Shown here piece by piece: positions 1-19,202 of a DNA stretch of 59,959 bases (positions are counted from its first letter, which is position 1; each line of letters opens with the position of its first letter). Source of the DNA: Kiritimatiellia bacterium (GTDB taxonomy: Bacteria; Verrucomicrobiota; Kiritimatiellia; RFP12; UBA1067). Where the stretch lies: the NCBI GenBank assembly GCA_017542055.1, contig JAFXXW010000001.1:1-59959 (forward strand). The letters run 5' to 3'. The notes beneath the pieces are model-generated. The model did no database searches, was not told where the DNA came from, and saw nothing but the letters and a program-made list of their open reading frames with translations. A program made the position numbers and the translations under genes.

Positions 1-116
1 CCTTTTTCGACGCTCCCCGGCTCTGAAATGGTTCCGCTGGCATACAGCAGGCTTTCTGTCAGTGTCGTCTTGCCCGCATCTACATGGGCAAGAATCCCGA
101 TATTGATAATGTTCAT
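1..116 (-). CDS. tet(W): Tetracycline ribosomal protection protein, Tet(W)-like; 5' part only, runs off the window edge
   Basis: Not in the ORF track. Manual translation from ATG 116 gives [38 protein letters not shown](G), the GTPase G1 region of TetM/O/W proteins, closest to the Tet(W) N-terminus as I recall it. RBS-like GAGGGAG upstream. Exact class cannot be fixed from 38 codons. Confidence 0.8.
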
Positions 117-250
117 GTCTGATCATTCTCCCTCATTTGACAGCTGTTGAAATACCGATTCATGGCAAGTGGAATATACCCTTATCCCATTCTCGGACGA
201 AACGATGTCCTCATCGACAACCTCTATGTTCGTCAACTCCTCAGAGCCAA

Positions 251-336
251 CAGGGTCAGACCTGATTGCCACAGTAAATTGCCACAGTAGGTTTTCCTTG
301 TCATAGAGGCGCGACCCTTTCGATTCGCTGCTTGCC
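251..336. repeat. End-motif repeat CAGGGTCAGAC(C/T)TGATTGCCACAG plus flank, copy 1
   Basis: 251-286 matches the reverse complement of 14353-14388 at 34/36. 251-336 also matches 14941-15012 in direct orientation, apart from an internal duplication of TTGCCACAGTA. Confidence 0.85.
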
Positions 337-470
337 CCCTTCAAACGCGCGGTGTGCCACTCGGCTGATCAGGCGCTGGCACCGATCTGGAAGATTTATC
401 CTGCACCGTCTCATGCCGAACAGTATATCATAAACTCCCACAACCTCCCTAACTCGTTTCATCAGCATAT

Positions 471-499
471 ATTATATCATATTTTGGGACAAAAGACAA
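471..499 (-). promoter_or_regulatory. sigma70 promoter pointing toward the tet gene
   Basis: Minus strand TTGTCT-N17-TATAAT with TG extended -10, same architecture as the other promoters in the window. Confidence 0.65.
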
Positions 500-705
500 G
501 GGTGTTTGCGTATGTTTTGGACAAACTCCAAGGTTGCCAGGCCGTCGATCGCAACAATATCCAAGGTTGTTTCGCGCCGCTCTGTCAACTCCCGCTCCTT
601 TCATTGGTCATTGGAATTGGCACTGGCAACATTTCCACATTGGCAACATTCTCCCCCAACCCGCGCTTGCCCTCATCCGCGTATTCATTGCGACTTCTCC
701 GTGGT

Positions 706-3700
706 TCAATCTTCGGGCGGGGCGGCGACGGCTTTGATGAATATGCGGCGGAAGGGAACGGTCTTGGAGTTGGAGCGCGCGAAGGAGAACTTCTTGACGT
801 TCTGTGCGCCATCGCGCAACTGGCGGGTGTAGGCGAGGCGCCCGTTGTCGTAAACCTTCACATCCCGGCCTCTGAAGACGACTTTGACGACCTTGTTCGT
901 CTCGCCCTTCGGCCACGGGAGAATGGCGAAACGGTTGTCCTTCTCGTCGGTCTTGTTTGCGACGGCGAGCACGCTGAAGCGCTGGTAGAAGTCCTTGGCG
1001 CTCGAGCCAAACTCAAAATGCATCATTCCCTCGCCCTTCGTCTCGGGTCCGTCCACCGTCAACTCGAATTCGACCGTAATTTCCTCCAGCTTCTCGTCTA
1101 TATCCGCCCAGAGATTCTTTGGAAAGATGCCGGCAAGTTCGCAACCGTCCGGCGCCAGCGCCTTGGTGCCGATGCAGCATCCGGCGAGGTATCTCAAGAA
1201 TCCCCACTGCAAATCCGGCGTGTTGTCCTTCGACACCTCGCCGCGATATATGAGCGGCAGGATGAGTTTCTCGAACGGCTCGTAGTTGCGCGTCTCGTGG
1301 GTATGGTCGCGGCACGATTTGCGCATCGGCTCCCACTGTCCGAAAGCGTGGCGCAGCGCGTGCAGCAAGTCCCTACGATCCGTGTCCGGACGCGACCGGA
1401 CCCAGTCGGCGAGCGCGCGCATCCCCGCATTGCGCCATGTGGTCGTGTTTTTCACGGCCTTGATGTAAGTCAGTTTCTCTTCCTTCGCCTTGGCGCCGTC
1501 GTAGTTACGCCACGCATCGAACATCTCCATGTCGCCCATGCTCCAAGCCGCCGCAAGGAACGTATCGGCGACGAATCGGCGCGCCCCGATGGAAACGCCC
1601 TTGCGCTTGAGATAGCCGCCGTTCATGTAGATGTCGCTGAAGTGGCGTATCACTTCGGCGTTGTTCTCCGCCCATTCCTCGAAATTCCGCTCCTTGCCTC
1701 GATACGTCTCTTCCTTGAAGACGTCCCAATACACCTTGTCGATTGCCCAGGCGGGCATGAGCGTATCAGCGAAGTCGTCGGACAGGAACATCCTGAAGAA
1801 CGCCATCATATCGAGCGTCGAGCCACCCCAGCGCGGACGCATTCCCCACACGAACTGGTCGGCGGCGAGCGCATCGTCCTTGAAAAGCGCCGCCGCGCGC
1901 CGGTACCACTTCAGCGCCTCCGCCCTGTTGCCGTAGTTGGCCTTGAGGCCGACGAATGTCGGGGATGCCAGGTCCGGCCGCAGCGCGTAAGCTTTCTCCG
2001 CCCATTCGAGCGCCTTGGCGCGGTGCTCGCCGTAGCCCTTCCAGCCTTCCTCCGTGACGGTGCTGGAGAAACCGCTGCCGCGCGCATCCCATGCGCGGTC
2101 GATGTGCCAGTAAGCCATCGCCACCGCCTCCAGCCACGGATCGAACGCCGCGCCTTCCGCTTTCAGCTCCTCGAAAACCATTTTGTTGTTGCCGCGCTGA
2201 TGCGCAATCGTCCACCACGCGCAGACGATTTCCTCCGGCTTCCATTCGCCGGAGGCGATGAACTTCTTTTTCAGCGCGACGGAAATCTGCGTCAGCTCAT
2301 TTGCGTTTTTGCCGTCATGTTCGCGCCAGTCGGCGATGAATAAGATGCGCGAGGCAAGCGGCCAGCGCGGGTCGTCCTTCCACTTTCCCCAAGTCTCGCG
2401 GCGCACGGCGGCATTCTCCTCCGCGCCGATCTTTTTCGGGTGTTGCGCCGTATGCTCGATCACCACGAACGGCGTGCGAGCGCCGCGTTCCCACGCCGCC
2501 GTCGCGTCCGCCGCATAATCCTTGCGCAGCGACTTGCGGTTTACGTCTTTCGGCGCGCGGGAAATGGCGTATTCCCTGACTACTGCGGCCATATCCATAT
2601 CCGAGAACGCGGCGCCGAGCATCTCCTGCTCTGGCTTGGCAAGCAGCCGCTCCGCGAACGGCATGAACACCTCCTCCGTCCAGTCCAACGCAGCCCCGGC
2701 ACCCGCAAGCGGCAAAGCGAGCGGCGCGGCGGCTTCTTCGTCCTCTTCCTCATCATTATCTTCGGCGTCATCATCTTCGCCATCCGCCGCCGACTCGAGG
2801 ATTTCCTCGACACTCGCCTCGGCAATCTCCACTGAACGTTCCATGCCGTATGCCACACTTTTGAGTAGTTCGTCCTTCTCTTCCGCGAGTTCCTCCGGCA
2901 CCTCAAGCGCCTTGAGCCGAGACTCGACATCGCGCAAATCCTCCGCCCGCTTCGCGAACAGCGCCTTGATGCGTTCGGCCGTCTCGGCGTCCTTTGGTCT
3001 GCCTATCTTTTCAAGTTCGGCGGCAAACGCCATACTGCTTCGCTGCGACTCTTCGAAAAGCTCCTTGAAATATTTTCCCCTGAGCGGCGCAAGCCGCAAT
3101 TCCTTCTTGAAATTCTCCACCCATTTTTCCGCACCGCCGCGTTCGTAGCCGCCTTGGGACTTGATGCTTTCTTCCCACGCCGACACGATCAGCACCAATG
3201 GATAGCCCCTGACCTCGAACTTCTCCTGCAACTCGCGGTTGCGCCTGCGTTCCTTCGCCGACAACATGCTTGCGTCTTTCGGGAAATCAAGTACGACGCA
3301 CTCGAATTCATTTGTGGCATAGTCGAGAAATGCGCTCTTCGAGAGGACTTCCTTCTCAAGCTTCTTGCAATAAGTGCACCAGTCGCTACCGGTGAAAAGC
3401 AAGAACAAATCGCGCCCGTTCGCTTTCGCCCGCTCCCGCGCCGCATCGTAGTCCACCGTAAAACCCGCCGGCAATTTGCGATTGGCATTCGCCTCCGTCT
3501 CCTGCGCCACAGGAATAGCAACGCTGACCGCCGCAAGGCCATATCCCTGGCCATCTGCCGACGCCACCGCCTTCCAGTTGGCGTCGTCGCGGAAATCGTA
3601 ACCGAGCGCGTTTTTCTTGTAGCCGAGCGTGACGAACCCCGTGTAGTCGCAGACCGCCCGCACACCTTCCGGCGAATCCGTGAACACCGCGCGGACGCAT

Positions 3701-4701
3701 TTCACGTATTCCTTGCCGTCGCCCTTGTCGATGCACTGGAACTGCACGCGCAGCTTCTCTCCCGGCTGGTATTCCTTGTTATAGCCCTTCGCCTCAAGCC
3801 CCTCGCCTCCGTTCACCCACGCGCCGCCCATCATCCCGGAGAACTCGCCATCGGCAAGTTCTTCTATCGTCATGCCGGGGAAAACCAGCGTCGCCTCCCC
3901 TTCCCTCGCCGCAACATACCCGGCGTACGATTCTGTGCGAACTTCTGGCGGCGGCTCTGCCGTTTCTTCTTCCGCCTTTTCGTCCGCTTCCTTCTTCTCA
4001 ACTGGCTTCAGACTTTCCGCTCGCGCCACCGCCTCTTTAGAAAGAAACGCCTTGGCGTAGTCCGGCACTTCGCCGCCAAAGAAAGCGCGAACCTCGTCAT
4101 CGGTCGCCGTCCTGACGAATGTCTCCAGTTCCTCCTGGACTTGCTTGTGCTCCTTGGCAATCGACAGCGCCGACCATTGCGCCGCGCGTTGCGTCAAATC
4201 AATTGTCGCCTCCTCCGGAAACGTGAACGACCCTCGCTTGATGATGCGCCTCGGCGCCTCCCTGTCGCCCGTCGCGAAGAAATACCCCCACATGAAATCG
4301 AGATGCCCCGGTCCAAGCGCCTTGGGATCTTCGCCGACAATTTCGGCCAGCGACTTGCCATCAAGACCGAAGTCGATAGCGCCCTTCAGCCAGCGCGCCT
4401 TCGTCGCCTCTTTTGCCGCCACCCATTCGTCCTTGCGCTCCGGCGATATCTTCACCACGCCAAAATAGAATCCTGACATCGGGCTCACCGCGCTTCGCGA
4501 CTTCCTGACCGACTTCTCGACATACGGTATTTTCGCAATCGCCTCCACCGCGTCCGGCTTGAGGTAGTACGCTTGCAGAAACAAGTTGAACGCCTCCTCT
4601 TCGACGCTTGGTTTCCCGCCGCTCTTGCCGACCGCGACCATCGCCATCGCAACAATCGCAGCAAACATGATTTTCTTTTTCATATGTCTGTCTCCTTTCA
4701 T
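706..4701 (-). CDS. Large secreted multidomain protein: thioredoxin-like domain plus DUF4034-like domain
   Basis: 1331 aa ORF with signal peptide MKKKIMFAAIVAMAMVAVG (alternative start 4683 with AAAGGAG RBS), LLFTGSDWCTYC CxxC thioredoxin motif, acidic linker, and AWDARGSGFSSTVTEEGW motif typical of DUF4034. Confidence 0.75.
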   Translation of the reverse strand: MKGDRHMKKKIMFAAIVAMAMVAVGKSGGKPSVEEEAFNLFLQAYYLKPDAVEAIAKIPYVEKSVRKSRSAVSPMSGFYFGVVKISPERKDEWVAAKEATKARWLKGAIDFGLDGKSLAEIVGEDPKALGPGHLDFMWGYFFATGDREAPRRIIKRGSFTFPEEATIDLTQRAAQWSALSIAKEHKQVQEELETFVRTATDDEVRAFFGGEVPDYAKAFLSKEAVARAESLKPVEKKEADEKAEEETAEPPPEVRTESYAGYVAAREGEATLVFPGMTIEELADGEFSGMMGGAWVNGGEGLEAKGYNKEYQPGEKLRVQFQCIDKGDGKEYVKCVRAVFTDSPEGVRAVCDYTGFVTLGYKKNALGYDFRDDANWKAVASADGQGYGLAAVSVAIPVAQETEANANRKLPAGFTVDYDAARERAKANGRDLFLLFTGSDWCTYCKKLEKEVLSKSAFLDYATNEFECVVLDFPKDASMLSAKERRRNRELQEKFEVRGYPLVLIVSAWEESIKSQGGYERGGAEKWVENFKKELRLAPLRGKYFKELFEESQRSSMAFAAELEKIGRPKDAETAERIKALFAKRAEDLRDVESRLKALEVPEELAEEKDELLKSVAYGMERSVEIAEASVEEILESAADGEDDDAEDNDEEEDEEAAAPLALPLAGAGAALDWTEEVFMPFAERLLAKPEQEMLGAAFSDMDMAAVVREYAISRAPKDVNRKSLRKDYAADATAAWERGARTPFVVIEHTAQHPKKIGAEENAAVRRETWGKWKDDPRWPLASRILFIADWREHDGKNANELTQISVALKKKFIASGEWKPEEIVCAWWTIAHQRGNNKMVFEELKAEGAAFDPWLEAVAMAYWHIDRAWDARGSGFSSTVTEEGWKGYGEHRAKALEWAEKAYALRPDLASPTFVGLKANYGNRAEALKWYRRAAALFKDDALAADQFVWGMRPRWGGSTLDMMAFFRMFLSDDFADTLMPAWAIDKVYWDVFKEETYRGKERNFEEWAENNAEVIRHFSDIYMNGGYLKRKGVSIGARRFVADTFLAAAWSMGDMEMFDAWRNYDGAKAKEEKLTYIKAVKNTTTWRNAGMRALADWVRSRPDTDRRDLLHALRHAFGQWEPMRKSCRDHTHETRNYEPFEKLILPLIYRGEVSKDNTPDLQWGFLRYLAGCCIGTKALAPDGCELAGIFPKNLWADIDEKLEEITVEFELTVDGPETKGEGMMHFEFGSSAKDFYQRFSVLAVANKTDEKDNRFAILPWPKGETNKVVKVVFRGRDVKVYDNGRLAYTRQLRDGAQNVKKFSFARSNSKTVPFRRIFIKAVAAPPED

Positions 4702-4788
4702 TGAAAATTGAGTTTGGTTTTAGTCACGTGAAAACGCATCATCATCCGCGTATTCATTTCGATTCCTCCGATATCATGGCTTGCATCT

Positions 4789-5211
4789 TCAATGACAATC
4801 TATTAAGGTTACGATTAAGCGATAGGCGGCATAGACAGCGCCACCAACAGCAACGCCTATGACAAGTAGCGACCGCGCAATCTCCGCGCAAACGGACAGT
4901 TTGGAAATCGCTTTCCATTGATAACGGTCCCTCCAACTGCTGTTGCCTTCAAGATATTCAAGCAACGCATCTTCCGCCTCGCGTCGCGAAACAAGCCTGT
5001 CGCAGCGATATGCCTTGCCGCCTTTCCCTTCTTGATAGCAAAGTCTGAAATTGTCCGGCGGATTCACAAACGACACATGTATAAAAGCATCCGCATCGTG
5101 CGCTTGCCGCAACAACAAGTTTGTGCCTCGCTTCTTGTCGTCAGACATAAATTCGCGCAATAAGCTCGCCGTTGCATCTTGCTCTAGCGTTCTCGATGTT
5201 TTGACTCTCAT
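4789..5211 (-). CDS. Hypothetical protein with C-terminal TM helix; paralog of the N-domain of 6792..7994
   Basis: 140 aa, RBS GGAGCGGGAGC from the repeat; FRLCYQEG..YRC.R.VS..E..W...WK resembles FDLEYRDG..YHC.R.VS..E..W...WE. Confidence 0.7.
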   Translation of the reverse strand: MRVKTSRTLEQDATASLLREFMSDDKKRGTNLLLRQAHDADAFIHVSFVNPPDNFRLCYQEGKGGKAYRCDRLVSRREAEDALLEYLEGNSSWRDRYQWKAISKLSVCAEIARSLLVIGVAVGGAVYAAYRLIVTLIDCH

Positions 5212-5271
5212 GCTCCCGCTCCTTTCGTCTTGTCCGCGACGGCCCGCATAAACATCCGCGTAGTCATTTCG

Positions 5272-5859
5272 TCAGTTCCTTTCATTGCGCAACTCACCTG
5301 TCAACGCTTTTGTAGTCACTTCTTTGACTGCAATTTCACAGAAGTCACGACTGCCGCATCTAGCAAGCGGGCCAGCATCCCAGTACCGGTGCTCGAACCA
5401 GCCGGGAATCGGCAGAAACCCAGTTGGCAACACCGAAACCAATCCATATCCATTAATGTCAACGCCTATTCCCATGTCACCTTCCGGGAAACCAAGTTCA
5501 ATCGTGAAGTGCTGTGATGTCTTCACATACATCGGCAATATCGTCAATGTTGCGAAGCTGGGAATTCTCGACCAAAGCGGACTGTCGCTCGTTTCAGGCT
5601 CTTGCTTTACCGCAACCTTGACTATTGGAAGCGCGTCGTCACCACTAGATTTTGGCAATCGTCTAATGGCATATAGTGCGACCATTTCATAATAGCCACA
5701 ACTGGAAGGTTCAATCAGCCTATAGTACTCACTTTGCGTATTGCCGGAAACCTTTAGCGACGTTACGCTGTAATTGTATCCGGCATTTACGCACCCTGCC
5801 AAGCACCCCGCCATCGCCGCTCCCGCTACGGCCCGCGCAAACATCATCCGCGTATTCAT
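5272..5859 (-). CDS. Lipoprotein whose signal peptide begins with the type A repeat
   Basis: MNTRMMFARAVAGAAMAGCLAGC with LAGC lipobox; RBS AAAGGAACGAACCC. Confidence 0.75.
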   Translation of the reverse strand: MNTRMMFARAVAGAAMAGCLAGCVNAGYNYSVTSLKVSGNTQSEYYRLIEPSSCGYYEMVALYAIRRLPKSSGDDALPIVKVAVKQEPETSDSPLWSRIPSFATLTILPMYVKTSQHFTIELGFPEGDMGIGVDINGYGLVSVLPTGFLPIPGWFEHRYWDAGPLARCGSRDFCEIAVKEVTTKALTGELRNERN

Positions 5860-5877
5860 GGGTTCGTTCCTTTAGTT

Positions 5878-6654
5878 TTACCTCTCCTCTTTCGCGCGAG
5901 GGATACAGCAACCTTCAACAGCGCTGATAGTCAGGACGCGTTCTTCGTTGTCCCACGTCCATCTGCAACCCAAACTGGAGCAGAGCAAATAGATTAGCGA
6001 TTCTAGCCGTATATCGCGCGCCTCAAAAACTGGTGCAGGGGTCTGCGAAATATCGCCGCCTTCCATCGCATTCTTGTATTCGCGTATGATGCGCAATCTT
6101 CCTTTTCCATCGTGTCCCTCCGGACAAGAGCAATTCATGCATTGCTCGAGATAGTCAATTGCATCGTCAAGCGTTGCGGGCGGTCGTATCTTGAATAAGG
6201 GGACAACTATCTCATGCAGTAAATCTTTCTCCTGCGCAAAGCAACGAGAATCATAGCAAGCGACCATTTTCCCCTCAATTGGTGGGCGAAATTTATCTTT
6301 GTCCCGAATCAGCGAGCTCAAATGCATCGCATACATTCGCTGAAGCCTTGCGAACGCTCGCAAATCCTCGTCAAGCAACGAATACTTGTCGTCCAGCTTT
6401 TTGCGCAACCACTTAATCTGCTCATCCATCGGCATAGTCGTGCCACCAGGATAAATAGAATCCTCCAAACAAGCTATTTCTGCCGCATTTGTCAGTACGA
6501 CATGAAACAAAGCCTCTGCCGAGGAAATCCGAAACTTGCCGCATGTGTTATTATAACCCGCAAGGTCGTCTTTAATTAAATCGTTCTCGGGTAACCAGCC
6601 AAACGCCGTCGCGACCATTGCCGCGAGCCCCACCGCCATCATCATTTTCTTCAT
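5878..6654 (-). CDS. Secreted hypothetical protein, possible STN-like C-terminal domain
   Basis: Signal peptide MKKMMMAVGLAAMVATAFG; C-terminal FEARDIRLESLIYLLCSSLGCRW resembles secretin/TonB N-terminal domains. Confidence 0.65.
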   Translation of the reverse strand: MKKMMMAVGLAAMVATAFGWLPENDLIKDDLAGYNNTCGKFRISSAEALFHVVLTNAAEIACLEDSIYPGGTTMPMDEQIKWLRKKLDDKYSLLDEDLRAFARLQRMYAMHLSSLIRDKDKFRPPIEGKMVACYDSRCFAQEKDLLHEIVVPLFKIRPPATLDDAIDYLEQCMNCSCPEGHDGKGRLRIIREYKNAMEGGDISQTPAPVFEARDIRLESLIYLLCSSLGCRWTWDNEERVLTISAVEGCCIPRAKEER

Positions 6655-6791
6655 CGCCGTTTTCCTTTCATTGACAATTGGTTATTGGCATTGGATATTT
6701 GCACATTTTCACATTTCCCTCTCCCCCTACGCAGAGCTGCGGAGGACAAGTTGATTCGTGCAAATGGTTTCATGGGTTGCTCCTTTCGGTT

Positions 6792-7994
6792 TCATTTCAG
6801 TGGGATGCGGTAGGATGATGAGACGACTAGGCCGCTCTTGAACACCACCGTGGCGCGGAAATAGTATCTGAAGGCAGTATGACAGTCTTTTGCGATTCGC
6901 GGCATTTCCAGCGTCACGCTGCCGGACGCGATCTCCAGCGAATGCGTAAACTTCTTTTCATCGTTAATATCTCCCGGTTGAGCGCCAACAATCCCGTGTC
7001 TTGCCTCGCAAGCCGCACATGCCGCCGTCGCAAGTGCAACGCTCTTTACCTCTTCCGCGTCGCCTTTGAAGCGGTATTCAAATGTAGCGCGTTCGCCCTC
7101 TTTCAGCAACCCACCCACAAGCCGCACCTCGTAGCTTGGCCGCAGATGTTTCCATAGAAGGCGGAAGAAATACACTGTCATCGCAACGCCAATGAGCGGG
7201 AAGACCACGCCTATAACAAGAATCGCATCGAATCCCTTTTCGGAATAGGCACGCACGGCATCTACAAACTTCGGAGCAAGGCCATAAAACGCGCCAGCAT
7301 CCCAGCCTATGCACCAAATCGCCATGAAGACAAGGCCATTGGGCAACATACGCCGCAGTCTTATTCCATCCATCGGTATCGACCGCTCATGAGCCTCCCG
7401 CGTCTTGCCGCGTGTCTTGAGCCATTTCACAAGCTGCATCACAGGGCCACCGATAAAGACGCAAGCGAAGAGCGCAAAGAATCCCGCATATATCCAATCG
7501 CCCTTGTCCGCATTCGGACGCAACGCCGTCTTAATCGCATCGTAAAGATTCAAGGAGATGAGTGGCACACCAATAGCGATGGCGATTGCCGCAGCCACAT
7601 AGCACAAAACCTTTTCGGCTGGCGGCATCCCGGCCGTCGGGGAAAATGTCCAACCGCTCGTACCGCCCCGCTCCAACTCCCAATCAAAGCAACTGCGCCA
7701 CTCGCCGCGCCCGGCCAGTTCATCGAGAAAGACGCGCTCCACCTCGTCCGTGCTAACGCGGCGCGAGCAGTGGTAGAGATAGCCGTTCTTGCCATCGCGG
7801 TATTCGAGGTCGAAAAGTCCGTCGCTTTTGCCGCCCACTTCGTCATAGTCGCAGGCGATCTGCACGAAGCGTGAGTCGTCCGCGTCGTCCGACATGATCA
7901 TGAACTCGCCGCGCCGCGCGTCATTCCGCACCAGCTCGCGCACAAGCTCTTCGGTGGCGACCCGCTCGCCCATCTTCTCCGCCTCAATCTTCAT
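6792..7994 (-). CDS. Multi-pass membrane hypothetical protein
   Basis: 400 aa with about 4 hydrophobic segments; repeat-derived RBS. Confidence 0.75.
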   Translation of the reverse strand: MKIEAEKMGERVATEELVRELVRNDARRGEFMIMSDDADDSRFVQIACDYDEVGGKSDGLFDLEYRDGKNGYLYHCSRRVSTDEVERVFLDELAGRGEWRSCFDWELERGGTSGWTFSPTAGMPPAEKVLCYVAAAIAIAIGVPLISLNLYDAIKTALRPNADKGDWIYAGFFALFACVFIGGPVMQLVKWLKTRGKTREAHERSIPMDGIRLRRMLPNGLVFMAIWCIGWDAGAFYGLAPKFVDAVRAYSEKGFDAILVIGVVFPLIGVAMTVYFFRLLWKHLRPSYEVRLVGGLLKEGERATFEYRFKGDAEEVKSVALATAACAACEARHGIVGAQPGDINDEKKFTHSLEIASGSVTLEMPRIAKDCHTAFRYYFRATVVFKSGLVVSSSYRIPLK

Positions 7995-8066
7995 GCTCCC
8001 GCTCTCCTTTCTTAATCCTGTCTAAAAGCTTTCCCGCGACGGCCCGCGCAAACATCCTCCGCGTAT

Positions 8067-9404
8067 TCATACGGATCCCTTTCGCAAGAAGTCTTCATAT
8101 TCGCCAATGAAGTAAAGCGGCAGGATGCGAACGGCATCATCAATTAGACCAAAGTTCTCTTCGGAGGTTCGGATGGCAAGCTTCAGGTTCTTTTCCTCCA
8201 TAAGAATGCGCAGACTCTTCATGGAACCATTGACGCCGGATTTAACCTCGATCGGCAGCACATTGTCGCCGAACTGGACGACATAATCTACCTCGGCATT
8301 GGAATCTTTCGCCTCCCGATGCCAATAAAAGAGGCGGTTTTCGGCGAACGCCGAGCCCGCCTTTTTGAGTTCCAGCCCCGTGAACATCTCCGCCAGCTTG
8401 CCGCGATTGACGAACTTCCCCGGCGGCTCGTTCACCCATTCCGGCACGTTCAAGCCGCTTTCGCGCAGATAAAGCCCCGTATCGAGCAACATGAACTTCT
8501 GGCTTTTGGGATTGAGGTCCCCGCCCAACGGAACGCCACTGGCGTTGCAGCAATCAGTGCGTATTGTCAACTTGGCGCGTTCCAACAAATCGGTGGCGTT
8601 TTTCGACTGGACGTAACTGAGACCCAAAAGCGCGTCCGAATAGACGAACTTTTCGCAAGTCTGGCGCACGACCGATGTGAGCGCGTGCCGTATCACATCC
8701 GGACTCAGCCTCGTCTTGTATTTGCCGAAGTCTTCCTTGAGCGAGACGAGAATATCGTCCTGCTCCCGTTGCGCCGCGAGGAAGCTCCCGGTTTCGACAT
8801 AGCGCTCGACAGCGGCCGGCATGCCGCCGACGATGAGAAACGACTTGAGAATCTCTAGCAGCTTGCCATGCGCAATCCCGGGTAGAGGCTTGTCGAATGC
8901 CGCGCCCCTCGCCCGCTCCAGAGCCATATCCGTCCCAAGTGCCCCGGCGAATTCCGCGTATGAGAGCGGATACACGAACATGTTGCGTATCCGCCCCACC
9001 CCGAAGTCGCTCAAATCGTCGAACACGAACTCCAAGAGCGACCCCGCCGCAATCACATGGAGACTTTGCATATCCTCGTAGAAAAACCGCAAAGCGGAAA
9101 TGGCGCGGGGGCACTCCTGTATCTCGTCAAGGAAAATAAGCGTGCGCCCAGGGACGACAGGCTTGTCAAACTGGTATTCAATGAGCGATACGATGGTCTT
9201 TACGTCCAGATCGCCAGCAAAAGCCTCGCGTATCTTGCGGTTCTTCTCGAAATTGACCTCGATATAATAATCAAAGCCTTCCGCAAGATGCCGCACTGCT
9301 GTCGTTTTGCCAGTCTGCCTGGCACCTCTGAGCAGCAAAGGCTTGTGGCTAGAATCGTTTTTCCAGTCCTCAAGGGCAGAATCTATCTTTCTTTTAATGT
9401 ACAT
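8067..9404 (-). CDS. AAA+ ATPase, AAA_14 + DUF4143 family
   Basis: Walker A GARQTGKT, Walker B LIFLDEIQ, AAGSLL, GGMP, and C-terminal YW.RE...AEVDY...PIEVKSG nuclease-like motif. Confidence 0.92.
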   Translation of the reverse strand: MYIKRKIDSALEDWKNDSSHKPLLLRGARQTGKTTAVRHLAEGFDYYIEVNFEKNRKIREAFAGDLDVKTIVSLIEYQFDKPVVPGRTLIFLDEIQECPRAISALRFFYEDMQSLHVIAAGSLLEFVFDDLSDFGVGRIRNMFVYPLSYAEFAGALGTDMALERARGAAFDKPLPGIAHGKLLEILKSFLIVGGMPAAVERYVETGSFLAAQREQDDILVSLKEDFGKYKTRLSPDVIRHALTSVVRQTCEKFVYSDALLGLSYVQSKNATDLLERAKLTIRTDCCNASGVPLGGDLNPKSQKFMLLDTGLYLRESGLNVPEWVNEPPGKFVNRGKLAEMFTGLELKKAGSAFAENRLFYWHREAKDSNAEVDYVVQFGDNVLPIEVKSGVNGSMKSLRILMEEKNLKLAIRTSEENFGLIDDAVRILPLYFIGEYEDFLRKGSV

Positions 9405-9433
9405 TTTGCGCCTTTCCCATGGTTACAAGGCAT

Positions 9434-9488
9434 ATTATAGCATATTTTGGGGCGCACCGCAATAGCCAAGTGCCGAAAATCGGCACTT
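9434..9488 (-). promoter_or_regulatory. sigma70 promoter of the AAA ATPase with an adjacent palindrome
   Basis: TTGCGG-N17-TATAAT on the minus strand; perfect inverted repeat AAGTGCCGA-aaa-TCGGCACTT at 9468-9488. Confidence 0.6.
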
Positions 9489-9693
9489 ATAACCTCTGTC
9501 AAATAATCATATTCGGCGGACACTCACGCGATAAAGTAGCGAAAAACGGGGGATTAACTCCAATCGCCCTGCACAATGTCTCAATCTATCCTGCCTATTG
9601 ACTCAAGCACCAACCAACCGCCCTATATCGTTTTCCAACCCATTCGACACGCCCGCGACGGCCCGCGCAAACATCTTTCGAGTATTCATTTCG

Positions 9694-10056
9694 TCAGTTC
9701 CTATCCTTTGTTGATTGGTCCAAACGCCGTAGTTTTCGCAGGAAGTAAGAAACCATACAAATAACAACAGCGGCGATAAGGCTATAGAGAAACATACCTA
9801 AAAAGATGACGAATAATCCAAGCAGAATATTCCCTTGCTGTTCGCCCATGACATTAAATATAAATCTCCGTGCGAGCATCAAATACGGTTCGTAAACCAA
9901 TACGAACGCGTTTGCAACCACCTTCTCGACATATCTAGGGAAAAGCGGTGCCGCAGCAAAAACAACAACCTGTATGCACAACAACACAGTGGTAATAGCG
10001 ACGATTTTACTCGCCGCTCCCGCGACGGCCCGCGCAAACATCATCTGCGTATTCAT
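9694..10056 (-). CDS. Small membrane protein starting with the type A repeat (MNTQMMFARAVAG)
   Basis: 120 aa, hydrophobic; its ATG overlaps the TGA of the upstream gene. Confidence 0.65.
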   Translation of the reverse strand: MNTQMMFARAVAGAASKIVAITTVLLCIQVVVFAAAPLFPRYVEKVVANAFVLVYEPYLMLARRFIFNVMGEQQGNILLGLFVIFLGMFLYSLIAAVVICMVSYFLRKLRRLDQSTKDRN

Positions 10057-10532
10057 TTCGATTCCTCCCTTTCACGCGCCACCCGCCATGAACGTTTGTA
10101 CACATAGACAACCAACGACACAATTAATATGGCATAAGGAATTGGAGAAACCGTATCCACCTCTCTTGAAAACTTGCCTTTCCCTGCGATTGCGCTCTTG
10201 CATACTTTCTCGTCACTATGGGCCTCTTTCCACCAATTCGCCCCAATCCTGAACCCCGAATAATGTAATTCGTAGAAGACGCGTCCACTCTTATCTTTCA
10301 ACAAAAGTGGATCCAATTTACTACTCTTTCCCCACTTTGATATGTGTGTTACGCTCCCAATCAAAGATGACTCCATCGACTTCACCTCTCGTTTGTAAAA
10401 CCACCATGTTCGCCGACACAGGCGGACATAGCCGTCCTGCACCGTCAATGTGTCGCTCCGTTCGAAGAGGAACAGGAACGCCAACGCCGCCAACAGCAGC
10501 CATTTCATTTCCTTTTGCCATTTCAGCTTCAT
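10053..10532 (-). CDS. Membrane-anchored hypothetical protein (start MKLKWQKEMKW)
   Basis: Start placed at 10532 after the repeat RBS; ends EESK*; domain resembles the C-terminal half of 12511..13740. Confidence 0.7.
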   Translation of the reverse strand: MKLKWQKEMKWLLLAALAFLFLFERSDTLTVQDGYVRLCRRTWWFYKREVKSMESSLIGSVTHISKWGKSSKLDPLLLKDKSGRVFYELHYSGFRIGANWWKEAHSDEKVCKSAIAGKGKFSREVDTVSPIPYAILIVSLVVYVYKRSWRVAREREESK

Positions 10533-10606
10533 GCTCCCGCTCCTTTCGACTTGTCCGCGACGGCCAGCGCAAACATCATCCGCGTATTCATGAGTTTGCC
10601 CCTTGC

Positions 10607-11017
10607 CTATAAATTCCCATTGCAAGCACGGCTTACAAACACGGCAACGACGACAACGACGACAACGATAATAAATGCCAAATACAAAAGACAGCCAACC
10701 TTGAATGCTTTTGCAAAATGCTTTCCTGCCAATTTCATGTCGCCGCGCTCCAGCGCATTGCGGACTGCTTGCGTGCCAAACAGGGACAACTGATATCCGC
10801 CCCTTGCGAACCCAAAACGTGCAAAAGCACTATTCTGACCATCTACCCCTGTCTCCACTTTCTTCCGCGCCAATTCACGCTCCAGTCTGCGGAACTTTTC
10901 TTCCGCCGTTTCCTCTGCGGCGAATCTTTCGCCCACTACTTCCGCCCCGCAGAAGGGACAGTTGAAGTGGTCTTCGCCGTTATCATACAGCTCTTTCCCG
11001 CAAGTCGGACACTTCAT
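10607..11017 (-). CDS. Zinc-ribbon protein with C-terminal TM helix
   Basis: MKCPTCG...CPFCG; hydrophobic C-terminus. Confidence 0.75.
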   Translation of the reverse strand: MKCPTCGKELYDNGEDHFNCPFCGAEVVGERFAAEETAEEKFRRLERELARKKVETGVDGQNSAFARFGFARGGYQLSLFGTQAVRNALERGDMKLAGKHFAKAFKVGCLLYLAFIIVVVVVVVAVFVSRACNGNL

Positions 11018-11072
11018 GCTCCCGCTCCTTTCGACTTGTCCGCGACGGCACGCACAAATATCATCCGCGTAT

Positions 11073-11618
11073 TCATTTTGTCAGATCCTTTTGGTTTCGA
11101 TTACAGCTACGGCTATTAAACACTTCTTCCGCCGTCATTGCGGCAGGGTAATCGTCATATATAGGTCTCGTATTATACCACTCCAAGTCTATCGTCCGAA
11201 ACAGTTCACCACCAGACAAGACGCGGGCTTGCCCGCTGGAAAAATCCAACCGCCCGCCGTGTCGCCATGGCCACGTTTCCAAATCAACATAGTAAACCAT
11301 CCATTTGCCATCCATGTCGCGAACATACAGCATGACATTATACGCTTTGCCTTTACAGACCTGAAACAGAACGTATTCACGCCCTTCTGGCGTCGTGCCA
11401 TGATCAAGTATCCTCTCATGCCGTCCGCTGTGCTGATCCACATCAAAGGCCACAAGCGCACATGACAAGAAAATCCATATCGTCCCTGCCACTATGAGCC
11501 AACGCCGTTTCCTTTTTATTCCCACCCAAAGAAGCCAGGCGGGAATTACAAAAAGCAAAGACAACGCGGCACTCCGTAGAAGCCAGCACAGCAATACATC
11601 TGCCCACGGCATATTCAT
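11073..11618 (-). CDS. Membrane hypothetical protein
   Basis: 181 aa with two N-terminal TM segments; ATGA overlaps at both ends with linker ORFs. Confidence 0.7.
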   Translation of the reverse strand: MNMPWADVLLCWLLRSAALSLLFVIPAWLLWVGIKRKRRWLIVAGTIWIFLSCALVAFDVDQHSGRHERILDHGTTPEGREYVLFQVCKGKAYNVMLYVRDMDGKWMVYYVDLETWPWRHGGRLDFSSGQARVLSGGELFRTIDLEWYNTRPIYDDYPAAMTAEEVFNSRSCNRNQKDLTK

Positions 11619-11818
11619 TTTATAACTCCTTTTTTGTCAGCTATCGCCGCTCGGCGTGTTCGCGTCCCCATGGGTCGCGAACACGCCAAGCGAAGCGAGT
11701 GCCGAGTCCCCAATTGGTAATTGGATTTGGTATTGGCAACATTTCCACATTGGCAACATTCTCCCCCGGCCCGCGCAAACATCATCCGCGTATTCATGAG
11801 TTCGTTCCTTTCTGTGCT

Positions 11819-12436
11819 TCAGTTTCTTGCGGCAAATCTGCGCACAAGTTTGATGATTTCCATCCCAGCCACACAAAGGCTACCTAATACGATGAGCAGA
11901 TAGAAAAGTCGCAACCAACGTTCCCGCCATATATTCCTTTTGCGCGGCAGCGCTTTCTCGCGCCTCTCGCATGCGACTTTATCAAGGAACATCGCCACTT
12001 CGCCAACGGTTTTGAATGTGCCAATTGAATCTACTTCTTCAGGTGTCAGCTTACCATATCTCTGCTCAGCCGCCATCCAGAATTCGACTCCGCCAAAGTC
12101 GTCCACCGCATCATTTTCCAAGAGAGACACGACAGATGGCCAGGCATCGTCAGCTGCAATATGCAGAAACAATTCGCCGCGCTCCGGCAAACCATAATCT
12201 GCGTATTGTTGCGTGCAGATTGAGGCAACTGAGGACACTCGCCCGTCTTTAGGCATGTTCATCCTTTTACGCAGTTCAAGTTGCTCGATGGCAATCTTGT
12301 TGCGACGCACATACGCCCGATATGCCTTGCCGGGCCACACCCAGAAATGCTTGATTGCGACATCGACAAGCGGCGCGACTTCTCCCGCATTCGTCTTGCG
12401 CTGTAATTCAAGCAAAGACTCAAAATCCTTACTCAT
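11819..12436 (-). CDS. Hypothetical protein with C-terminal TM helix; weak ACP-like segment
   Basis: 205 aa; VEFWMAAEQRYGKLTPEEVDSIGTFKTVGEV resembles ACP helices but lacks the DSL serine. Confidence 0.65.
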   Translation of the reverse strand: MSKDFESLLELQRKTNAGEVAPLVDVAIKHFWVWPGKAYRAYVRRNKIAIEQLELRKRMNMPKDGRVSSVASICTQQYADYGLPERGELFLHIAADDAWPSVVSLLENDAVDDFGGVEFWMAAEQRYGKLTPEEVDSIGTFKTVGEVAMFLDKVACERREKALPRKRNIWRERWLRLFYLLIVLGSLCVAGMEIIKLVRRFAARN

Positions 12437-12510
12437 TCTCCCGCTCCTTTCATTTTATCCACGACGCCCCGCGCAAACATTATCCGCGTATTCATTTCGC
12501 GGCCTCCATG

Positions 12511-13740
12511 CTACGCATCCCAGTAGTCCTTCTTTTGAACTGGCCGTGCGATTTCCAATCCGCTGCACGCAAAGGCCATAGGCATCAGAAGAAATATTCC
12601 CAACATAACAGTAGACAAGTTTGGCAGCCTTTCTCTGTCGAATGTAGCACCGGGACGGCGCCTTATAGCTTCCATAAGCCCTATCTGATATCCACTGACC
12701 TCCCTGCCATAGCCATACAGCCGCTTCAACACTTGCTTGCCCGCCCCTTGTATCTCCAATTCGTGTGAAGCGTGCTTGCCTCTTCCCATCACAAGTTCCA
12801 CGTAAGTTATATCCTTTACCGGAATCTCGGTCCTTTCAACCTTGCGGCCCCACCATCGCGACTCGGTTATGACGAGCTTGCCGCCTGAAACCACGATCCT
12901 CTCACTCTCGGAAAACGCATACGCAAAGCACAAAAGCACAGCCATCAAAAGCACTCCGAACGCAACTGGATGCTTTATCCCCAAGCCCCTCCTGCCGCCA
13001 TCGACCTTATTGAGAGAAAAACCTGCGGCGCGACGAGCAATGCATGCACAGAGATACTCTTGGACAGGCGCAGAAAGATATCGTCCGAATACTGCATTTG
13101 ACCTGTTCTTGGACTCCACGCATATTTCCCGGACAGGCGTACCTTGGTTGATAAGCCCTGTCTCTGGATGTTCATCGACAAATGCATAGGTTTCGGATGT
13201 AAGCGCAAATTCCGTCTCCCGACGAAAACGCCAAAGTCCGACCGTGTAGCATCCGTGCTCTGCAAAAAGACGCAAGACACGCTTTCCGAAAAGTTCGAAC
13301 ACAAGCCCTGCGACTCCCGACAGGAAAAATGGCGCGACAAGGATCGCCCATATCCAGTCACCATGCATCACGCAACTTACCATGCCGCATCCCGAGATCC
13401 CACACAGCCACAGGCAAAGAAGTATCATCGCAAGATTGCGCACAGGACATACAACCAAATCCGACCAAGCCCCTCCGCTTTCGGCGACAGCCGGTCTCAC
13501 CTCAATGCCTGCCGGTGCCTCGCCAAGATCGCGTTTCGCCGAATCGCGCTGGATTTGCCGCTTGAGGGAATACCGCTTACCGCATGACCGACAGCGCATC
13601 ATGTCCGTGCGAATGTCAATGTCTTCAAATGCTATCTCCGCACCACAATCTGGACAGTGATACACCTTTCGCCTTGCAGTAGGCCACCTGACGCCCCGCG
13701 CAAGCATCATCGGCAATTCTATTTTGTTTTTCATCCTCAC
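12511..13740 (-). CDS. Zinc-ribbon membrane protein
   Basis: CPDCG...CRSCG and multiple TM segments; GTG start overlapping the linker TGA; degenerate MMLARGV repeat in the N-terminus. Confidence 0.75.
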   Translation of the reverse strand: MRMKNKIELPMMLARGVRWPTARRKVYHCPDCGAEIAFEDIDIRTDMMRCRSCGKRYSLKRQIQRDSAKRDLGEAPAGIEVRPAVAESGGAWSDLVVCPVRNLAMILLCLWLCGISGCGMVSCVMHGDWIWAILVAPFFLSGVAGLVFELFGKRVLRLFAEHGCYTVGLWRFRRETEFALTSETYAFVDEHPETGLINQGTPVREICVESKNRSNAVFGRYLSAPVQEYLCACIARRAAGFSLNKVDGGRRGLGIKHPVAFGVLLMAVLLCFAYAFSESERIVVSGGKLVITESRWWGRKVERTEIPVKDITYVELVMGRGKHASHELEIQGAGKQVLKRLYGYGREVSGYQIGLMEAIRRRPGATFDRERLPNLSTVMLGIFLLMPMAFACSGLEIARPVQKKDYWDA

Positions 13741-13822
13741 GCCCCTTTCTTAATCCTGTCAATCCTGTTAATCCTGTCTAAAAACCTTCCCGCGACGGCC
13801 CGCGCAAATGTCTTTCGCGTAT

Positions 13823-14158
13823 TCATTTCGTTTCAATCTCCTCCCCGCAATGCGCACAAACAATTGTCTGGCATTTTCGGATTTGCTTCAAGCGCCCATA
13901 GTTCCACCACTTTGACAAGACAGACTTGCCGCAATGAGGACATTTCGCATAATGCATCATAAACAGACCCAGCATAATACCCATTCCTGACATGCACAGA
14001 AACAACGCAAATACAGACAAGTTCAACACATGCAATCCAGCAATATGTTTGGCTACACACATGTGGCCACATGCAATCATCAAACAGACAACACAAATAA
14101 CATTAACCCAGCGCCAACATAGTCGGCACATGGCAAAGTTGGATTTTATAGTCTTCAT
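13823..14158 (-). CDS. Small membrane zinc-ribbon protein; paralog of 19683..20015
   Basis: Two TM segments, then CPHCG...CAHCG; ends IETK*. Confidence 0.75.
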   Translation of the reverse strand: MKTIKSNFAMCRLCWRWVNVICVVCLMIACGHMCVAKHIAGLHVLNLSVFALFLCMSGMGIMLGLFMMHYAKCPHCGKSVLSKWWNYGRLKQIRKCQTIVCAHCGEEIETK

Positions 14159-14352
14159 GCTCCCGCTCCTTTCTTAATCCTGTCAATCTTGTAAATCCTG
14201 TCTAAAAACCTTCCCGCGACGACCTGCGCAAACATCATCCGCATATTCATGGGTTCGTTCCTTTCTGTGCTTCAGTTTCTTGCGGCAAATCTGCGGCGCC
14301 GCCTCGACTCGCACCCGTCTTCATTCTGTTTGTTGTTGCCATGTTTCTTTAG

Positions 14353-14963
14353 TGTGGTAATTTACTGTGGCAATCAAGTCTGACCCTGTAGCCTCGTGTC
14401 ATGCCTCACAGGTCGAAGAATTCTCCCACAATTAAATTGAACTCCTTTCTTTTTCAATCTAACTCTGCGTTTAGCCTCTTTCTTTATCGCCCATGTACAA
14501 AAATACGGAAGCGCATCTGCCCCAATTCCGCATCCATATAATTCACGCAGTTTATACTTCCGGCGAACGACCGTCATGGCAATATCAAGACAGATGAAAT
14601 TATGCCAAAGATATTTCGACCATTTGGGCATGCCTACGGTCGATATTATGAAAATAGGCACGACCACCGACAATGGCCGCAACGTTTCTCGACAGTCTTT
14701 AAGAAGGGCGTATTTCAATTCAACAAAGGCTAAGACGCCCATGATAATCGGCAAAAACACCACGAGTAAGATAATAAAGCGTACAAACAACCAATCGTTT
14801 ACGCACCCAATAATAAACTGAATGCGATCCAAGGGGCTCATGTTCATCCTCTTCGTCCACGTCCTCAATGTCATTATAAATATCTCCTATAACCAAAAGA
14901 ACCTGTTGCACCAACCATAACATTCAGTCGGGGAACCAATAGGGTCAGACTTGATTGCCACAG
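14353..14963. mobile_element. Small element bounded by inverted repeats and carrying an AT-rich ORF (non-autonomous, REPIN/MITE-like)
   Basis: CTGTGGCAATCAAGTCTGACCCT (14365-14387) and AGGGTCAGACTTGATTGCCACAG (14941-14963) are exact 23-bp inverted repeats; the interior is AT-rich. Confidence 0.6.
14374..14874 (-). CDS. AT-rich membrane hypothetical protein
   Basis: 166 aa with AGGAG RBS; the stop codon is supplied by the inverted repeat. Confidence 0.55.
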   Translation of the reverse strand: MTLRTWTKRMNMSPLDRIQFIIGCVNDWLFVRFIILLVVFLPIIMGVLAFVELKYALLKDCRETLRPLSVVVPIFIISTVGMPKWSKYLWHNFICLDIAMTVVRRKYKLRELYGCGIGADALPYFCTWAIKKEAKRRVRLKKKGVQFNCGRILRPVRHDTRLQGQT

Positions 14964-15039
14964 CAGGTTTTCCTTGTCATAGCGGCGTGACCCTTTCGAT
15001 TCGCCGCCTGCCATCCTTCGTCATGGCGCGGTGGGCGCC

Positions 15040-15241
15040 GCGACTTCTTGACCGACTTCTCGAAATACGGAATCTTCGCAATCGCCTCCGCCGCATCCGG
15101 CGCCAGATAGTATCCTTCCAAGAACTTCACGAACACCTCGTCTTCCGCCGGCGCTCCTGTTCCCTTGCCGACCGCGACCATCGCCATCGCAACAATCGCA
15201 GCAAACATGATTTTCTTTTTCATATGTCTGTCTCCTTTCAT
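15040..15241 (-). pseudogene. Truncated paralog of the 5' end of 706..4701
   Basis: MKGDRHMKKKIMFAAIVAMAMVAVGK is identical, then diverged (FLEGYYLAPDAAEAIAKIPYFEKSV vs FLQAYYLKPDAVEAIAKIPYVEKSV); similarity ends near 15040, next to the end-motif flank. Confidence 0.8.
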
Positions 15242-15321
15242 TGAAAATTGAGTTTGGTTTTAGTCACGTGAAAACGCATCATCATCCGCGTATTCATGAG
15301 TTCGTTCCTTTCGGTTCTATT

Positions 15322-16581: not shown

Positions 16582-16668
16582 GCTCCCGCTCCTTTCGACT
16601 TGTCCGCGACGACCCGCACAAACAGTTTTGTTTTCATGCTACGACATCCTTTCTAGGTTTCCACCGAT

Positions 16669-16710
16669 ATTTTACCATTTCCCGCGCCGGAGGTGGAGTC
16701 CGGCAACGGA
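16669..16710 (-). promoter_or_regulatory. Putative internal array promoter (extended -10 TGGTAAAAT)
   Basis: Minus strand AAATGGTAAAAT followed by an RBS and the mini-ORF MKTKLFVR...; the -35 is unclear. Confidence 0.4.
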
Positions 16711-17149
16711 GTTTGCAGCCGATATGGCCGCAGAAAACGTCCATGCAGATTGCAGAGGCGTTTTTGAAGTCCACCGGCCAAATTCTACATTTTTCCAAGA
16801 TGAAATCACAGCCAATCATACACTTTTCCAAAACCGCCTGCAATAATTTTTGGCGAAAGTCAGCACGAACAACTCCACTCATTTGGCTTTTTTGCCGATG
16901 AACATCATCCTGAACATGGCTCTTTTCCTCACCAACTCTCGCTCCTTTCATTGGAAATTGGTATTGGTAATGGCAACATTCTTGACAGCCTTAGCGCAGA
17001 GCGCGGCGGCGGTTCCACATCTTGACCTCCAACTTGTCCGCCGTAGCCTTGGCGAAGGCGGAAGCCTCGGCGAAGGAGGCTGGCAACATTCTCCCCCGAC
17101 TCGCGCAAACATCATCCGCGTATTCATGAGTTCGTTCCTTTCGATTGGG

Positions 17150-17734: not shown

Positions 17735-17789
17735 GCTCCCGCTCCTTGCGTTTTGTCCGCGCCGATCCGCGCAAACATCATCAGCGTAT

Positions 17790-18446: not shown

Positions 18447-18509
18447 TTCATTAGTTCCTTAAGCTGAGTGGTATGGAGAAATAGAACGAATAGCGCAAAT
18501 TCAACGACA

Positions 18510-19055: not shown

Positions 19056-19202
19056 GCTCCCGCTCCTTTCATTGGTAATTGGATTTGGACTTGGCAACAT
19101 TTCCATATTGGCAACATTTCCCTCTCCCCCTACGCAGAGCGGCGGAGGACAAGGCGGAGGACAAGTTGATTCGTGCAAAGGGGTTCATGGGTTGCTCCTT
19201 TA

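Follow-up and report, generated by a model that had tools for sequence, protein, structure and literature searches.

A tet(W) gene at a contig start in an uncultured ruminant-gut Kiritimatiellae genus, next to a truncated copy of an undescribed inverted-repeat unit

Background

Tet(W) is a ribosomal protection GTPase which releases tetracycline from the ribosome. The sequences to be considered next to such a gene here are of two further kinds. MITEs, ERIC sequences and the Correia elements of Neisseria are short intergenic inverted-repeat elements, and integrons are characterized by the core sites R'' and R' with the consensus sequences RYYYAAC and GTTRRRY, respectively.

The closest described vehicle of the gene itself is IME_Rho_tet, which is reported to carry 71% of the gut tet(W) genes in Bacillota (Sidibe et al. 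2026, PMC12904643). As set out in the part of that paper that deals with the element, it has 21-bp terminal repeats and a conserved 5' region of ~656 bp, which is present in 80% of the tet(W) elements and lies between the terminal repeat and the ribosomal protection protein (RPP) gene, while a relaxase, MobC and a serine recombinase are encoded downstream in the same orientation (PMC12904643). According to the same part of the paper, the screen covered Bacillota and Actinomycetota only, and it is there that the known tet(W) vehicles are described (PMC12904643). In a literature search, in which co-mentions were judged mostly from titles and the starts of abstracts, tet(W) or ribosomal protection was not found connected with Kiritimatiellae genomes in any paper; nine papers name both tetW and Kiritimatiellae, and in one of these the two terms were seen not to be linked.

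The window described here is the initial 59,959 bases of C27, one of the 31 contigs of a metagenome-assembled genome (MAG) of 1.35 Mb (G000); base 1 of the window is base 1 of the contig. An initial annotation had placed the N-terminus of an RPP gene at this contig start and had regarded the gene as possible cargo of a small element bounded by inverted copies of a short motif, CAGGGTCAGAC.

Results

The minus strand of the window contains at 116->3 a stop-free stretch of 38 residues, which by translation are the first 38 codons of an RPP gene that runs off the contig start (feature 3..116). All 38 residues are identical to Tet(W) of OY725880.1, a Bacillota record (Subdoligranulum/S. variabile) in which the gene is annotated as tet(W) with 100% identity, and on the DNA level window 1-124 is 99.2% identical to this record, the match being confined to 1-124 in a search of a plasmid collection. 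The top NCBIfam model for the fragment is NF033148 (TetM/W/O/S) with 64.5 bits, the score of a fragment too short for the full-length cutoff, and the fragment comprises the N-terminal translational-GTPase G1 region in near-identical form. The only complete copy of the gene in the genus is found on a 54.5-kb contig of G573. Its product is identical to the Subdoligranulum Tet(W) (OY725880.1) in 639 of 639 residues, scores 1267.7 bits with NF033148 as compared to a cutoff of 1100, and contains the domains GTP_EFTU, EFG_III, EFG_IV and EFG_C. The gene at the contig start is thus an RPP gene and specifically tet(W), and as initially annotated it lies on the minus strand, which is also the strand of the array genes. 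Judged by these identities the contig opens inside a genuine tet(W), which is present in this uncultured ruminant-gut Kiritimatiellae genus, and from what is known of the protein family its predicted role is tetracycline resistance. The remainder of tet(W) was not found on the other G000 contigs by tblastn, all other matches being EF-G-type GTPases of 24-28% identity.

The start codon is preceded by a segment of 127 nt (117..243, minus strand) that accompanies tet(W) in Kiritimatiellae. It is 100% identical in G573, where identity extends to 245, and in a further genome, G631, and it differs from the upstream region of the Bacillota record. No match to 117-243 was found elsewhere in G000, and a distant search of the plasmid collection with window 100-260 found none there, the sole match in this collection being that of 1-124 in one tet(W) record. 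In addition, a 29-nt probe from the 127-nt leader had no matches in JGI metagenome scans, and when window 1-243 was compared with 400 further genomes sampled from the class, only weak GTPase-motif matches resulted, none of them near-identical.

Within the order, tet(W) DNA matches 8 of 319 genomes, G000 included. Five of these match at 99-100% (G000, G573, G591, G631 and G345) and three at 89-93% (G387, G330 and G540), the latter with 3' pieces only, of which the one in G387 is a remnant of roughly the final 89 codons. Identity of G573 to the window is 100% over 1-245 and is lost after 245, G591 shares the window only up to base 135, and G631, the genome of locus L024, shares window 39-439 with three mismatches at 290, 307 and 329, all of which lie within the repeat unit described below. 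Three upstream junctions of tet(W) are thus seen, at 135/136 in G591, at 245/246 in G573 and at 243/244, where the unit begins, in G000 and G631. The junction between tet(W), the 127-nt leader and the unit, for which an assembly chimera had initially been considered, recurs without change in G631, an independent MAG, and is thus reproducible. The DNA shared between G573 and the Bacillota record comprises ~246 nt downstream of the stop codon, the gene and 4 nt upstream of it, and in the window similarity to the S. variabile record stops at 120-124, which is 4-8 nt upstream of the ATG.

In G573 the gene is located inside an insert of 3,374 nt (~3.4 kb), which is flanked by perfect 35-nt direct repeats. 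Both repeats belong to a BspA-type LRR gene that is split by the insert, and both are read in one and the same codon phase of it; the LRR pattern resumes directly after the repeat in the downstream half-gene. The insert lies within an 8.86-kb island with a GC content of 0.48 versus 0.61 outside, the island being flanked by 45-nt direct repeats. Relaxase, transposase and recombinase families had no match among the 12 ORFs scanned over 20 kb around this tet(W). Following the gene leftward beyond the contig start by way of its relatives, as had been suggested, thus yielded the full tet(W) in G573 but no copy of the motif, 35-nt direct repeats being found in its place. G573 contains 0 motif copies genome-wide with two mismatches allowed, the genome being 87% complete, and the motif is also absent from G345, in which the 3' end of tet(W) and the DNA downstream of it are visible. 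Moreover, none of 108 loci that contain the motif carries the Tet(W) C-terminal piece. The proposal that tet(W) is cargo of a small element bounded by the motif is therefore not supported by these relatives.

What, then, is the motif that is found next to tet(W) in the window? Copies of CAGGGTCAGAC are located at 251-261 (+), at 14388-14378 (-) and, with one mismatch, at 14940-14950 (+); these three matches compare with 0.58 expected, and 1 of 100 shuffles reached three. In the whole 1.35-Mb MAG the 24-nt motif occurs three times, each time within the window. The longer repeats of the window are far beyond chance. They comprise 46-nt inverted arms (244-289 versus 14350-14395, 89%), perfect 23-nt inverted arms (14365-14387 and 14941-14963) and a 59-nt direct repeat (278-336 versus 14954-15012, 92%). 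The last of these is the shared 'outer flank' of the initial annotation, whose observation that the motif at 251 lies between promoter and tet with the same orientation and outer flank as that at 14941 is hereby confirmed.

A motif-anchored alignment of copies from other genomes shows that the side corresponding to tet(W) differs in nearly every copy and that the opposite side is conserved. Window 244-439 is 81-97% identical to copies from other Kiritimatiellae MAGs among the top matches listed, L024 apart, and most of these copies continue, beyond the position equivalent to 439, into a second arm in inverted orientation. Since the conserved body lies on the side away from tet and is closed by this second inverted arm, the motif is the tip of a unit of ~245 nt, consisting of a ~46-nt arm, a ~150-nt core and the inverted arm. 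Among 29 complete copies, from which a consensus was built, the distance between the repeat tips is mostly 228-233 nt, and the unit is predicted to fold as one long hairpin. The copy next to tet(W) is truncated (244..439, no strand assigned): it consists of the left arm at 244-289 and the ~150-nt core, the second arm being absent, and because this arm is lost the truncated unit should be unable to form the long hairpin. This anatomy disagrees with tet(W) as cargo of a small element bounded by the motif repeat, as the body of the arm is on the side away from tet and G573 uses direct repeats.

In a scan of one genome per species the 23-nt motif was found in 108 stretches. The titles of the best 80 of these 108 are for the most part those of Kiritimatiellae, Verrucomicrobia or Lentisphaerae MAGs from ruminant guts, and they also include many rumen MAGs and two short contigs binned as Clostridia or Oscillospiraceae; in viral contigs the motif had 0 matches. 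Copy numbers vary from genome to genome, with 39 arms across many contigs in G401, 18 in G540 and three in G000. Neither the unit nor window 1-1000 matched any Rfam family, and no sigma-70-like site was found inside a complete unit. Coding of a protein by the unit was considered and rejected, as the two window copies differ in their frames and stops and as indels shift the frame between copies; by eye, the conservation profile of the consensus has no period of three. As to mobility, no direct repeat indicative of a target-site duplication was seen by eye outside the arms of the 29 copies, and no properly oriented pair of arms 0.8-3 kb apart, as a larger element with the same arms would have, was found in G401, G402 and G540. 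A likeness to Tn3-type terminal repeats was dropped, as it amounts to a short similarity only and comes with no 5-bp duplication. By alignment, a non-coding, multi-copy unit of this lineage, similar in kind to MITEs and ERIC sequences, has the motif at 251 as its terminal inverted repeat. Since neither target-site duplications nor a larger element with matching arms were seen in the copies and genomes just named, the label MITE is used by resemblance only. A literature search found no description of this unit, which thus appears to be undescribed.

The other copies in the window are incomplete as well. A solitary inverted-repeat arm at 14350..14395 (minus strand), which is the left arm of the 'IR-bounded element' of the initial annotation, continues into the leader of the array gene that follows, and such an arm-plus-leader junction ('class B') is also found in L010, L025, L034, L037, L041, L075 and L092. 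A partial second unit at 14933..15036 (no strand assigned) consists of an arm and the first part of the core and is 84% identical over unit positions 35-114. Between the two outward-facing arms lies a 551-nt stretch of low GC content (0.43) with an ORF of 166 amino acids (14374..14874, minus strand), to which no family could be assigned: it had no match in Pfam, in the motif loci or elsewhere in G000. An empty site of this stretch (14389-14939) was sought in five relatives, in which only unit copies and leader repeats matched. Relative to the 166-aa ORF, the partial unit has the upstream position and the orientation that the truncated unit has relative to tet(W), and the contexts of the two genes are thus alike because both are downstream of a unit and not because they are inside one.

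Among 42 non-redundant unit ends of the tet type, 31 have an ORF of at least 120 aa which starts within 200 nt and reads away from the unit, and 19 have one that reads toward it; where only one kind of ORF is present, 15 ends have it reading away versus three toward. On the opposite side of complete units, the ORFs of 17 copies showed no clear bias. The unit would therewith usually be placed just upstream of a gene, its tet-type arm being next to that gene. This arrangement invites the explanation that the unit is a recombination or boundary site at which blocks of 'unit plus downstream gene' are swapped between Kiritimatiellae species, tet(W) with its 127-nt leader being one such gene and a further arm lying beyond the tet stop codon in this strain. 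Several observations fit this explanation. Adjacent units have the same orientation in 5/5 pairs, the spacers between them are of lower GC content and contain one ORF each, which starts 26-44 nt after the unit, and one block of unit and 356-aa ORF, which two species (G540 and G401) have in common with 97.7% identity, extends up to the next unit. Furthermore, the inner sequences found next to this arm are of at least five kinds, the window diverges from G573 exactly at the outer tip of the unit (+/- 2 nt), and G000 and G631 have the identical tet-127 nt-unit junction but different DNA beyond the unit, the G631 unit also being the closest copy to that of the window (three mismatches in 196 positions versus five for the next best among the top matches listed).

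Then again, G573 carries the identical tet(W) and leader with 0 arms in its genome and with 35-nt direct repeats around the gene, G345 is without an arm too, and the 108 motif loci include no Tet(W) C-terminus at all. No recombinase adjoining tet(W) was seen among the ORFs scanned in G573, G631 and G591, units are mostly dispersed singly over contigs with arrays of two to three units only, and the unit tips agree with the integron core-site consensus in just 6/7 and 4/7 positions, the unit being longer than known attC sites. A comparison of flanks across genomes was without informative pairs, as no pair among 14 usable copies shared a flank, and no pair of genomes with the unit present and absent at an orthologous site was found. 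On balance, we regard an exchange of this kind as unlikely for tet(W). The weaker version, which takes units as no more than the limits of exchangeable blocks of unit and gene and tet(W) as the gene of one such block, is rather unlikely too. We also find it improbable that the unit serves, as boundary or recombination site, an undescribed system of ruminant-gut Kiritimatiellae that moves such blocks between species and that drew tet(W) from the pool in Bacillota and set it downstream of a promoter of the host. Even so, the co-oriented adjacent units and the block shared by G540 and G401 look more cassette-like than random insertion of a MITE would, and the unit may mark an exchangeable block, given that G000 and G631 share the junction but differ beyond the unit and that units are usually found just upstream of genes.

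The truncated unit is followed to the right by a module that reads toward the unit and tet(W) (440..595, minus strand) and that contains promoter hexamers at 499->471 and an RBS-like AGGGAGG at ~446-452. The sigma-70-like site on the minus strand is TTGTCT-17-TATAAT with TG. As the number of such sites is close to expectation, with one versus 0.6 expected in 1-1000 and 18 versus 13.8 +/- 3.8 in 1-20000, the promoter count alone is not significant. However, positions 454-595 are 87% conserved in another member of the genus (G590:C70), where they are located directly before the RBS and ATG of an AAA-ATPase-like gene, which identifies the sequence as a host promoter/RBS module. Of the host-type promoter annotated at 471-499, the site itself and the host-type nature of its module thus stand, whereas its occurrence is not above chance by count. 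The 439/440 junction falls between the RBS of the module and the position that would be expected for the start codon.

Beyond the module lies a copy of the repeated leader/start module of the array (596..705, minus strand; repeat families D3 and D11), within which the nearest strain, G610, diverges at 660/661. This strain (G610:C41) is 98.65% identical to the window over 661-3382 and has a housekeeping-type gene in place of window 1-660, and G544 is 98.68% identical over 673-3388, with other array-type DNA beyond. To judge from these two alignments, window 1-660 is strain-variable.

Because the contig ends in tet(W) and the link of the gene to the chromosome runs through a 196-nt repeat, a chimera of assembly or binning has to be considered, in which the piece made up of tet(W), the 127-nt leader and the unit comes from other Kiritimatiellae of the same sample, of the G631 kind, and was joined via the shared 196-nt unit. 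The unit lends itself to such an event, as it is multi-copy and common to species at an identity of up to 97-98%. In addition, the remainder of tet(W) is missing from the bin, and the two nearest genomes, G610 and G544, are without window 1-660 at this site. We placed Logan contigs of four runs (X1, X3, X4 and X6) on window 1-1200, whereby stretches without cover (121-240 in X3 and X4, 441-600 in X6) were not counted as absence. A 186-nt contig of X1 covers 91-276 with no differences. The X1 contig at the tet junction has a depth of 24.7 as compared to 14.4 and 13.1 for the contigs over 410-651 and 628-1200, respectively, and two X1 contigs exit the unit at 439 into a complete second arm, both of which would also be compatible with a chimera. 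Then again, the sole X1 contig over 343-378 has a depth of 14.8, nearly that of the contig leading from the unit into 440-651 (14.4), and therefore most of the window-type unit continues into this chromosome. Contigs of X3 (392-720) and X4 (315-634) bridge 439/440 likewise and connect the unit core to 440 onward; a probe across this junction had 0 matches in JGI metagenome scans. Moreover, the unit of the window differs from that of G631 at 290, 307 and 329, so it is not simply the G631 copy, and G631 continues beyond 439 with a degenerate second arm and then with DNA unrelated to the window. The junctions of tet(W) with the leader and of the leader with the unit also occur in MAGs that were assembled independently (G573, G591 and G631), and a 953-nt contig of X6 covers 1-245 and is then unlike the window, matching the G573 type. 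We thus hold a chimera to be rather unlikely and the linkage of tet(W) to this chromosome to be probable. Even if the contig were chimeric, the unit adjoins tet(W) in G631, which is a member of the Kiritimatiellae itself, and the tet(W) of G573 lies within a Kiritimatiellae contig of 54.5 kb.

Discussion

Our preferred explanation, to which we assign a probability of roughly 0.6, is that tet(W) was acquired laterally and that the motif next to it is the tip of a lineage repeat, with no element bounded by CAGGGTCAGAC being involved. The gene would have been gained by a genus of uncultured ruminant-gut Kiritimatiellae, which would have kept only a short core from Bacillota, namely ~246 nt downstream, the gene itself and 4-8 nt upstream of it. 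We infer that this core was re-inserted at several junctions, presumably by short-homology or illegitimate events. In the window, the order along the direction of transcription would be the promoter/RBS module (595->440), the truncated unit (439->244), the 127-nt leader and tet(W), and the gene is predicted to be transcribed from the host promoter near 499-471 through the truncated unit. Several observations count against this explanation. The contig ends within tet(W), so a second arm could lie downstream of the gene in this strain, and the tet-127 nt-unit junction is exactly the same in G000 and G631, whose sequences part beyond the unit, as they would with a unit-bounded block as well. Further points against it, given above, are the co-orientation of adjacent units, the lack of target-site duplications in the 29 copies, the link through the 196-nt repeat and the promoter count.

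If the preferred explanation of a laterally acquired tet(W) core next to a lineage repeat is correct, the two parts of the locus matter for different reasons. The identical tet(W) allele is found in a commensal genus of the PVC group without its usual upstream region and mobility genes and at several junctions, which shows that tet(W) becomes separated from its vehicle and is established in distant lineages along other routes. The main importance of the repeat unit lies in assembly, as it is a point at which contigs break and may be wrongly joined; in addition, it is a possible marker of exchangeable gene blocks.

How does the locus compare with the systems described to date? With IME_Rho_tet it shares the gene: 38 residues in the window and 639 residues in G573 are identical to the Subdoligranulum Tet(W), and ~246 nt of downstream DNA are shared with the Bacillota record. 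The locus differs from this element, as characterized in the part of PMC12904643 that deals with it, in that the conserved 5' region is not found next to the gene, the similarity to OY725880.1, a Bacillota tet(W) record that may itself be without the element, ending 4-8 nt upstream of the ATG. It also differs in that no relaxase, MobC or serine recombinase is visible in the window or among the 12 ORFs around the G573 tet(W), and in that the host is a member of the Kiritimatiellae and thus outside the Bacillota and Actinomycetota which, by the account given there, were screened.

An inverted-repeat-bounded or composite resistance transposon is called to mind by a resistance gene whose start codon lies 135 nt away from an inverted-repeat arm. 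Unlike in such a transposon, however, the element body belonging to this arm faces away from the gene, and the complete relative in G573 has direct repeats. The unit as such resembles MITEs, ERIC sequences and Correia elements, in that it is ~245 nt long and non-coding, has long terminal inverted repeats and occurs in many dispersed intergenic copies, often upstream of genes. It differs from them in that its 29 complete copies are without target-site duplication, that no autonomous partner with the same arms was found in G401, G402 and G540 and that neighbouring units are co-oriented. With integron attC arrays, finally, it has in common that an imperfect palindromic unit lies between co-oriented spacers of lower GC content, each with a single gene whose ORF follows the unit after a few tens of nucleotides, but at ~245 nt it is longer than attC, its two tips match the core-site consensus to unequal extents, and most units are solitary. 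Taken together, this comparison characterizes the start of the contig as an ordinary resistance gene in a new host lineage, accompanied by an undescribed family of repeats.

Genomic context of tet(W) and of the left end of the contig

A complete copy of the tet(W) gene whose first codons lie at the left end of the window is carried by G573, a genome of the same genus, as an insert in a low-GC island of 8.86 kb (positions 8612-17467 of stretch L131, G573:C1:12000-31999), which is flanked on both sides by 45-nt direct repeats and has a sigma-54 activator gene and carB as its neighbours on either side. Besides the tet(W) insert the island contains BspA-LRR genes and genes for a DUF2971 protein and an ORF6N/PLD protein; one of its LRR genes is split by the insert, which is itself flanked by direct repeats of 35 nt. 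Elsewhere in the order, 3' pieces of a ribosomal protection protein (RPP) gene with 89-93% nucleotide identity to tet(W) occur in three more genomes (L134, L135, L136). In L134 (G387:C114, 7041-7309) a remnant inside the contig preserves roughly the final 89 codons, and the first 6.2 kb of the L134 stretch are 81% identical to contig C17 of G000, the genome of the window.

In the nearest genomes, G610 (contig C41, L138) and G544 (L139), window positions 1-660 are replaced by other DNA, and from about 661-673 onward both are approximately 98.7% identical to the window. The replacing DNA in G610 is a housekeeping-type gene, with 7 nt between its end and the shared DNA. The breakpoint between these genomes and the window lies within the repeated start module of the gene array described below. 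The promoter/RBS module at 454-595 is 87% conserved in the genus member G590 (contig C70, L140), where its counterpart is predicted to drive an AAA-ATPase-like gene.

Repeated modules and inverted-repeat units

The start module, 33-65 nt in length, occurs in 11-13 copies at window 5206-14250 and also at 673-701 and 15280-15318, and covers the translation start and initial codons (reading MNTRMMFA...) of genes co-oriented on the minus strand. These genes constitute what the initial annotation had called the array, and most of them have no Pfam family. A perfect direct repeat of 134 nt (4624-4757 and 15164-15297), beside which a further 107 nt are 79% identical, is common to the start regions of a 1331-aa thioredoxin-domain gene (706-4701) and a 98-aa ORF (14945-15241). 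Window 14389-14939 is a 551-nt stretch with a GC content of 0.43 as compared to 0.60 for the genome; its 166-aa ORF has hydrophobic stretches, no Pfam family and no match among the other loci and contigs compared.

The inverted-repeat units of about 245 nt (window 244-439, 14350-14395 and 14933-15036; loci L001-L108) form a family in Kiritimatiellae from ruminant guts, where a single genome has as many as 39 unit arms. Units often sit a short way upstream of a gene, adjacent units share orientation, and one and the same arm is joined to no fewer than five types of inner sequence. Two blocks that are 97-98% identical across species differ in relative order between L156 (G540:C10) and L157 (G401:C18), block B preceding the unit-ORF block in one and following it in the other, which looks like circular permutation or rearrangement at the units. 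This unit family appears to be undescribed so far.
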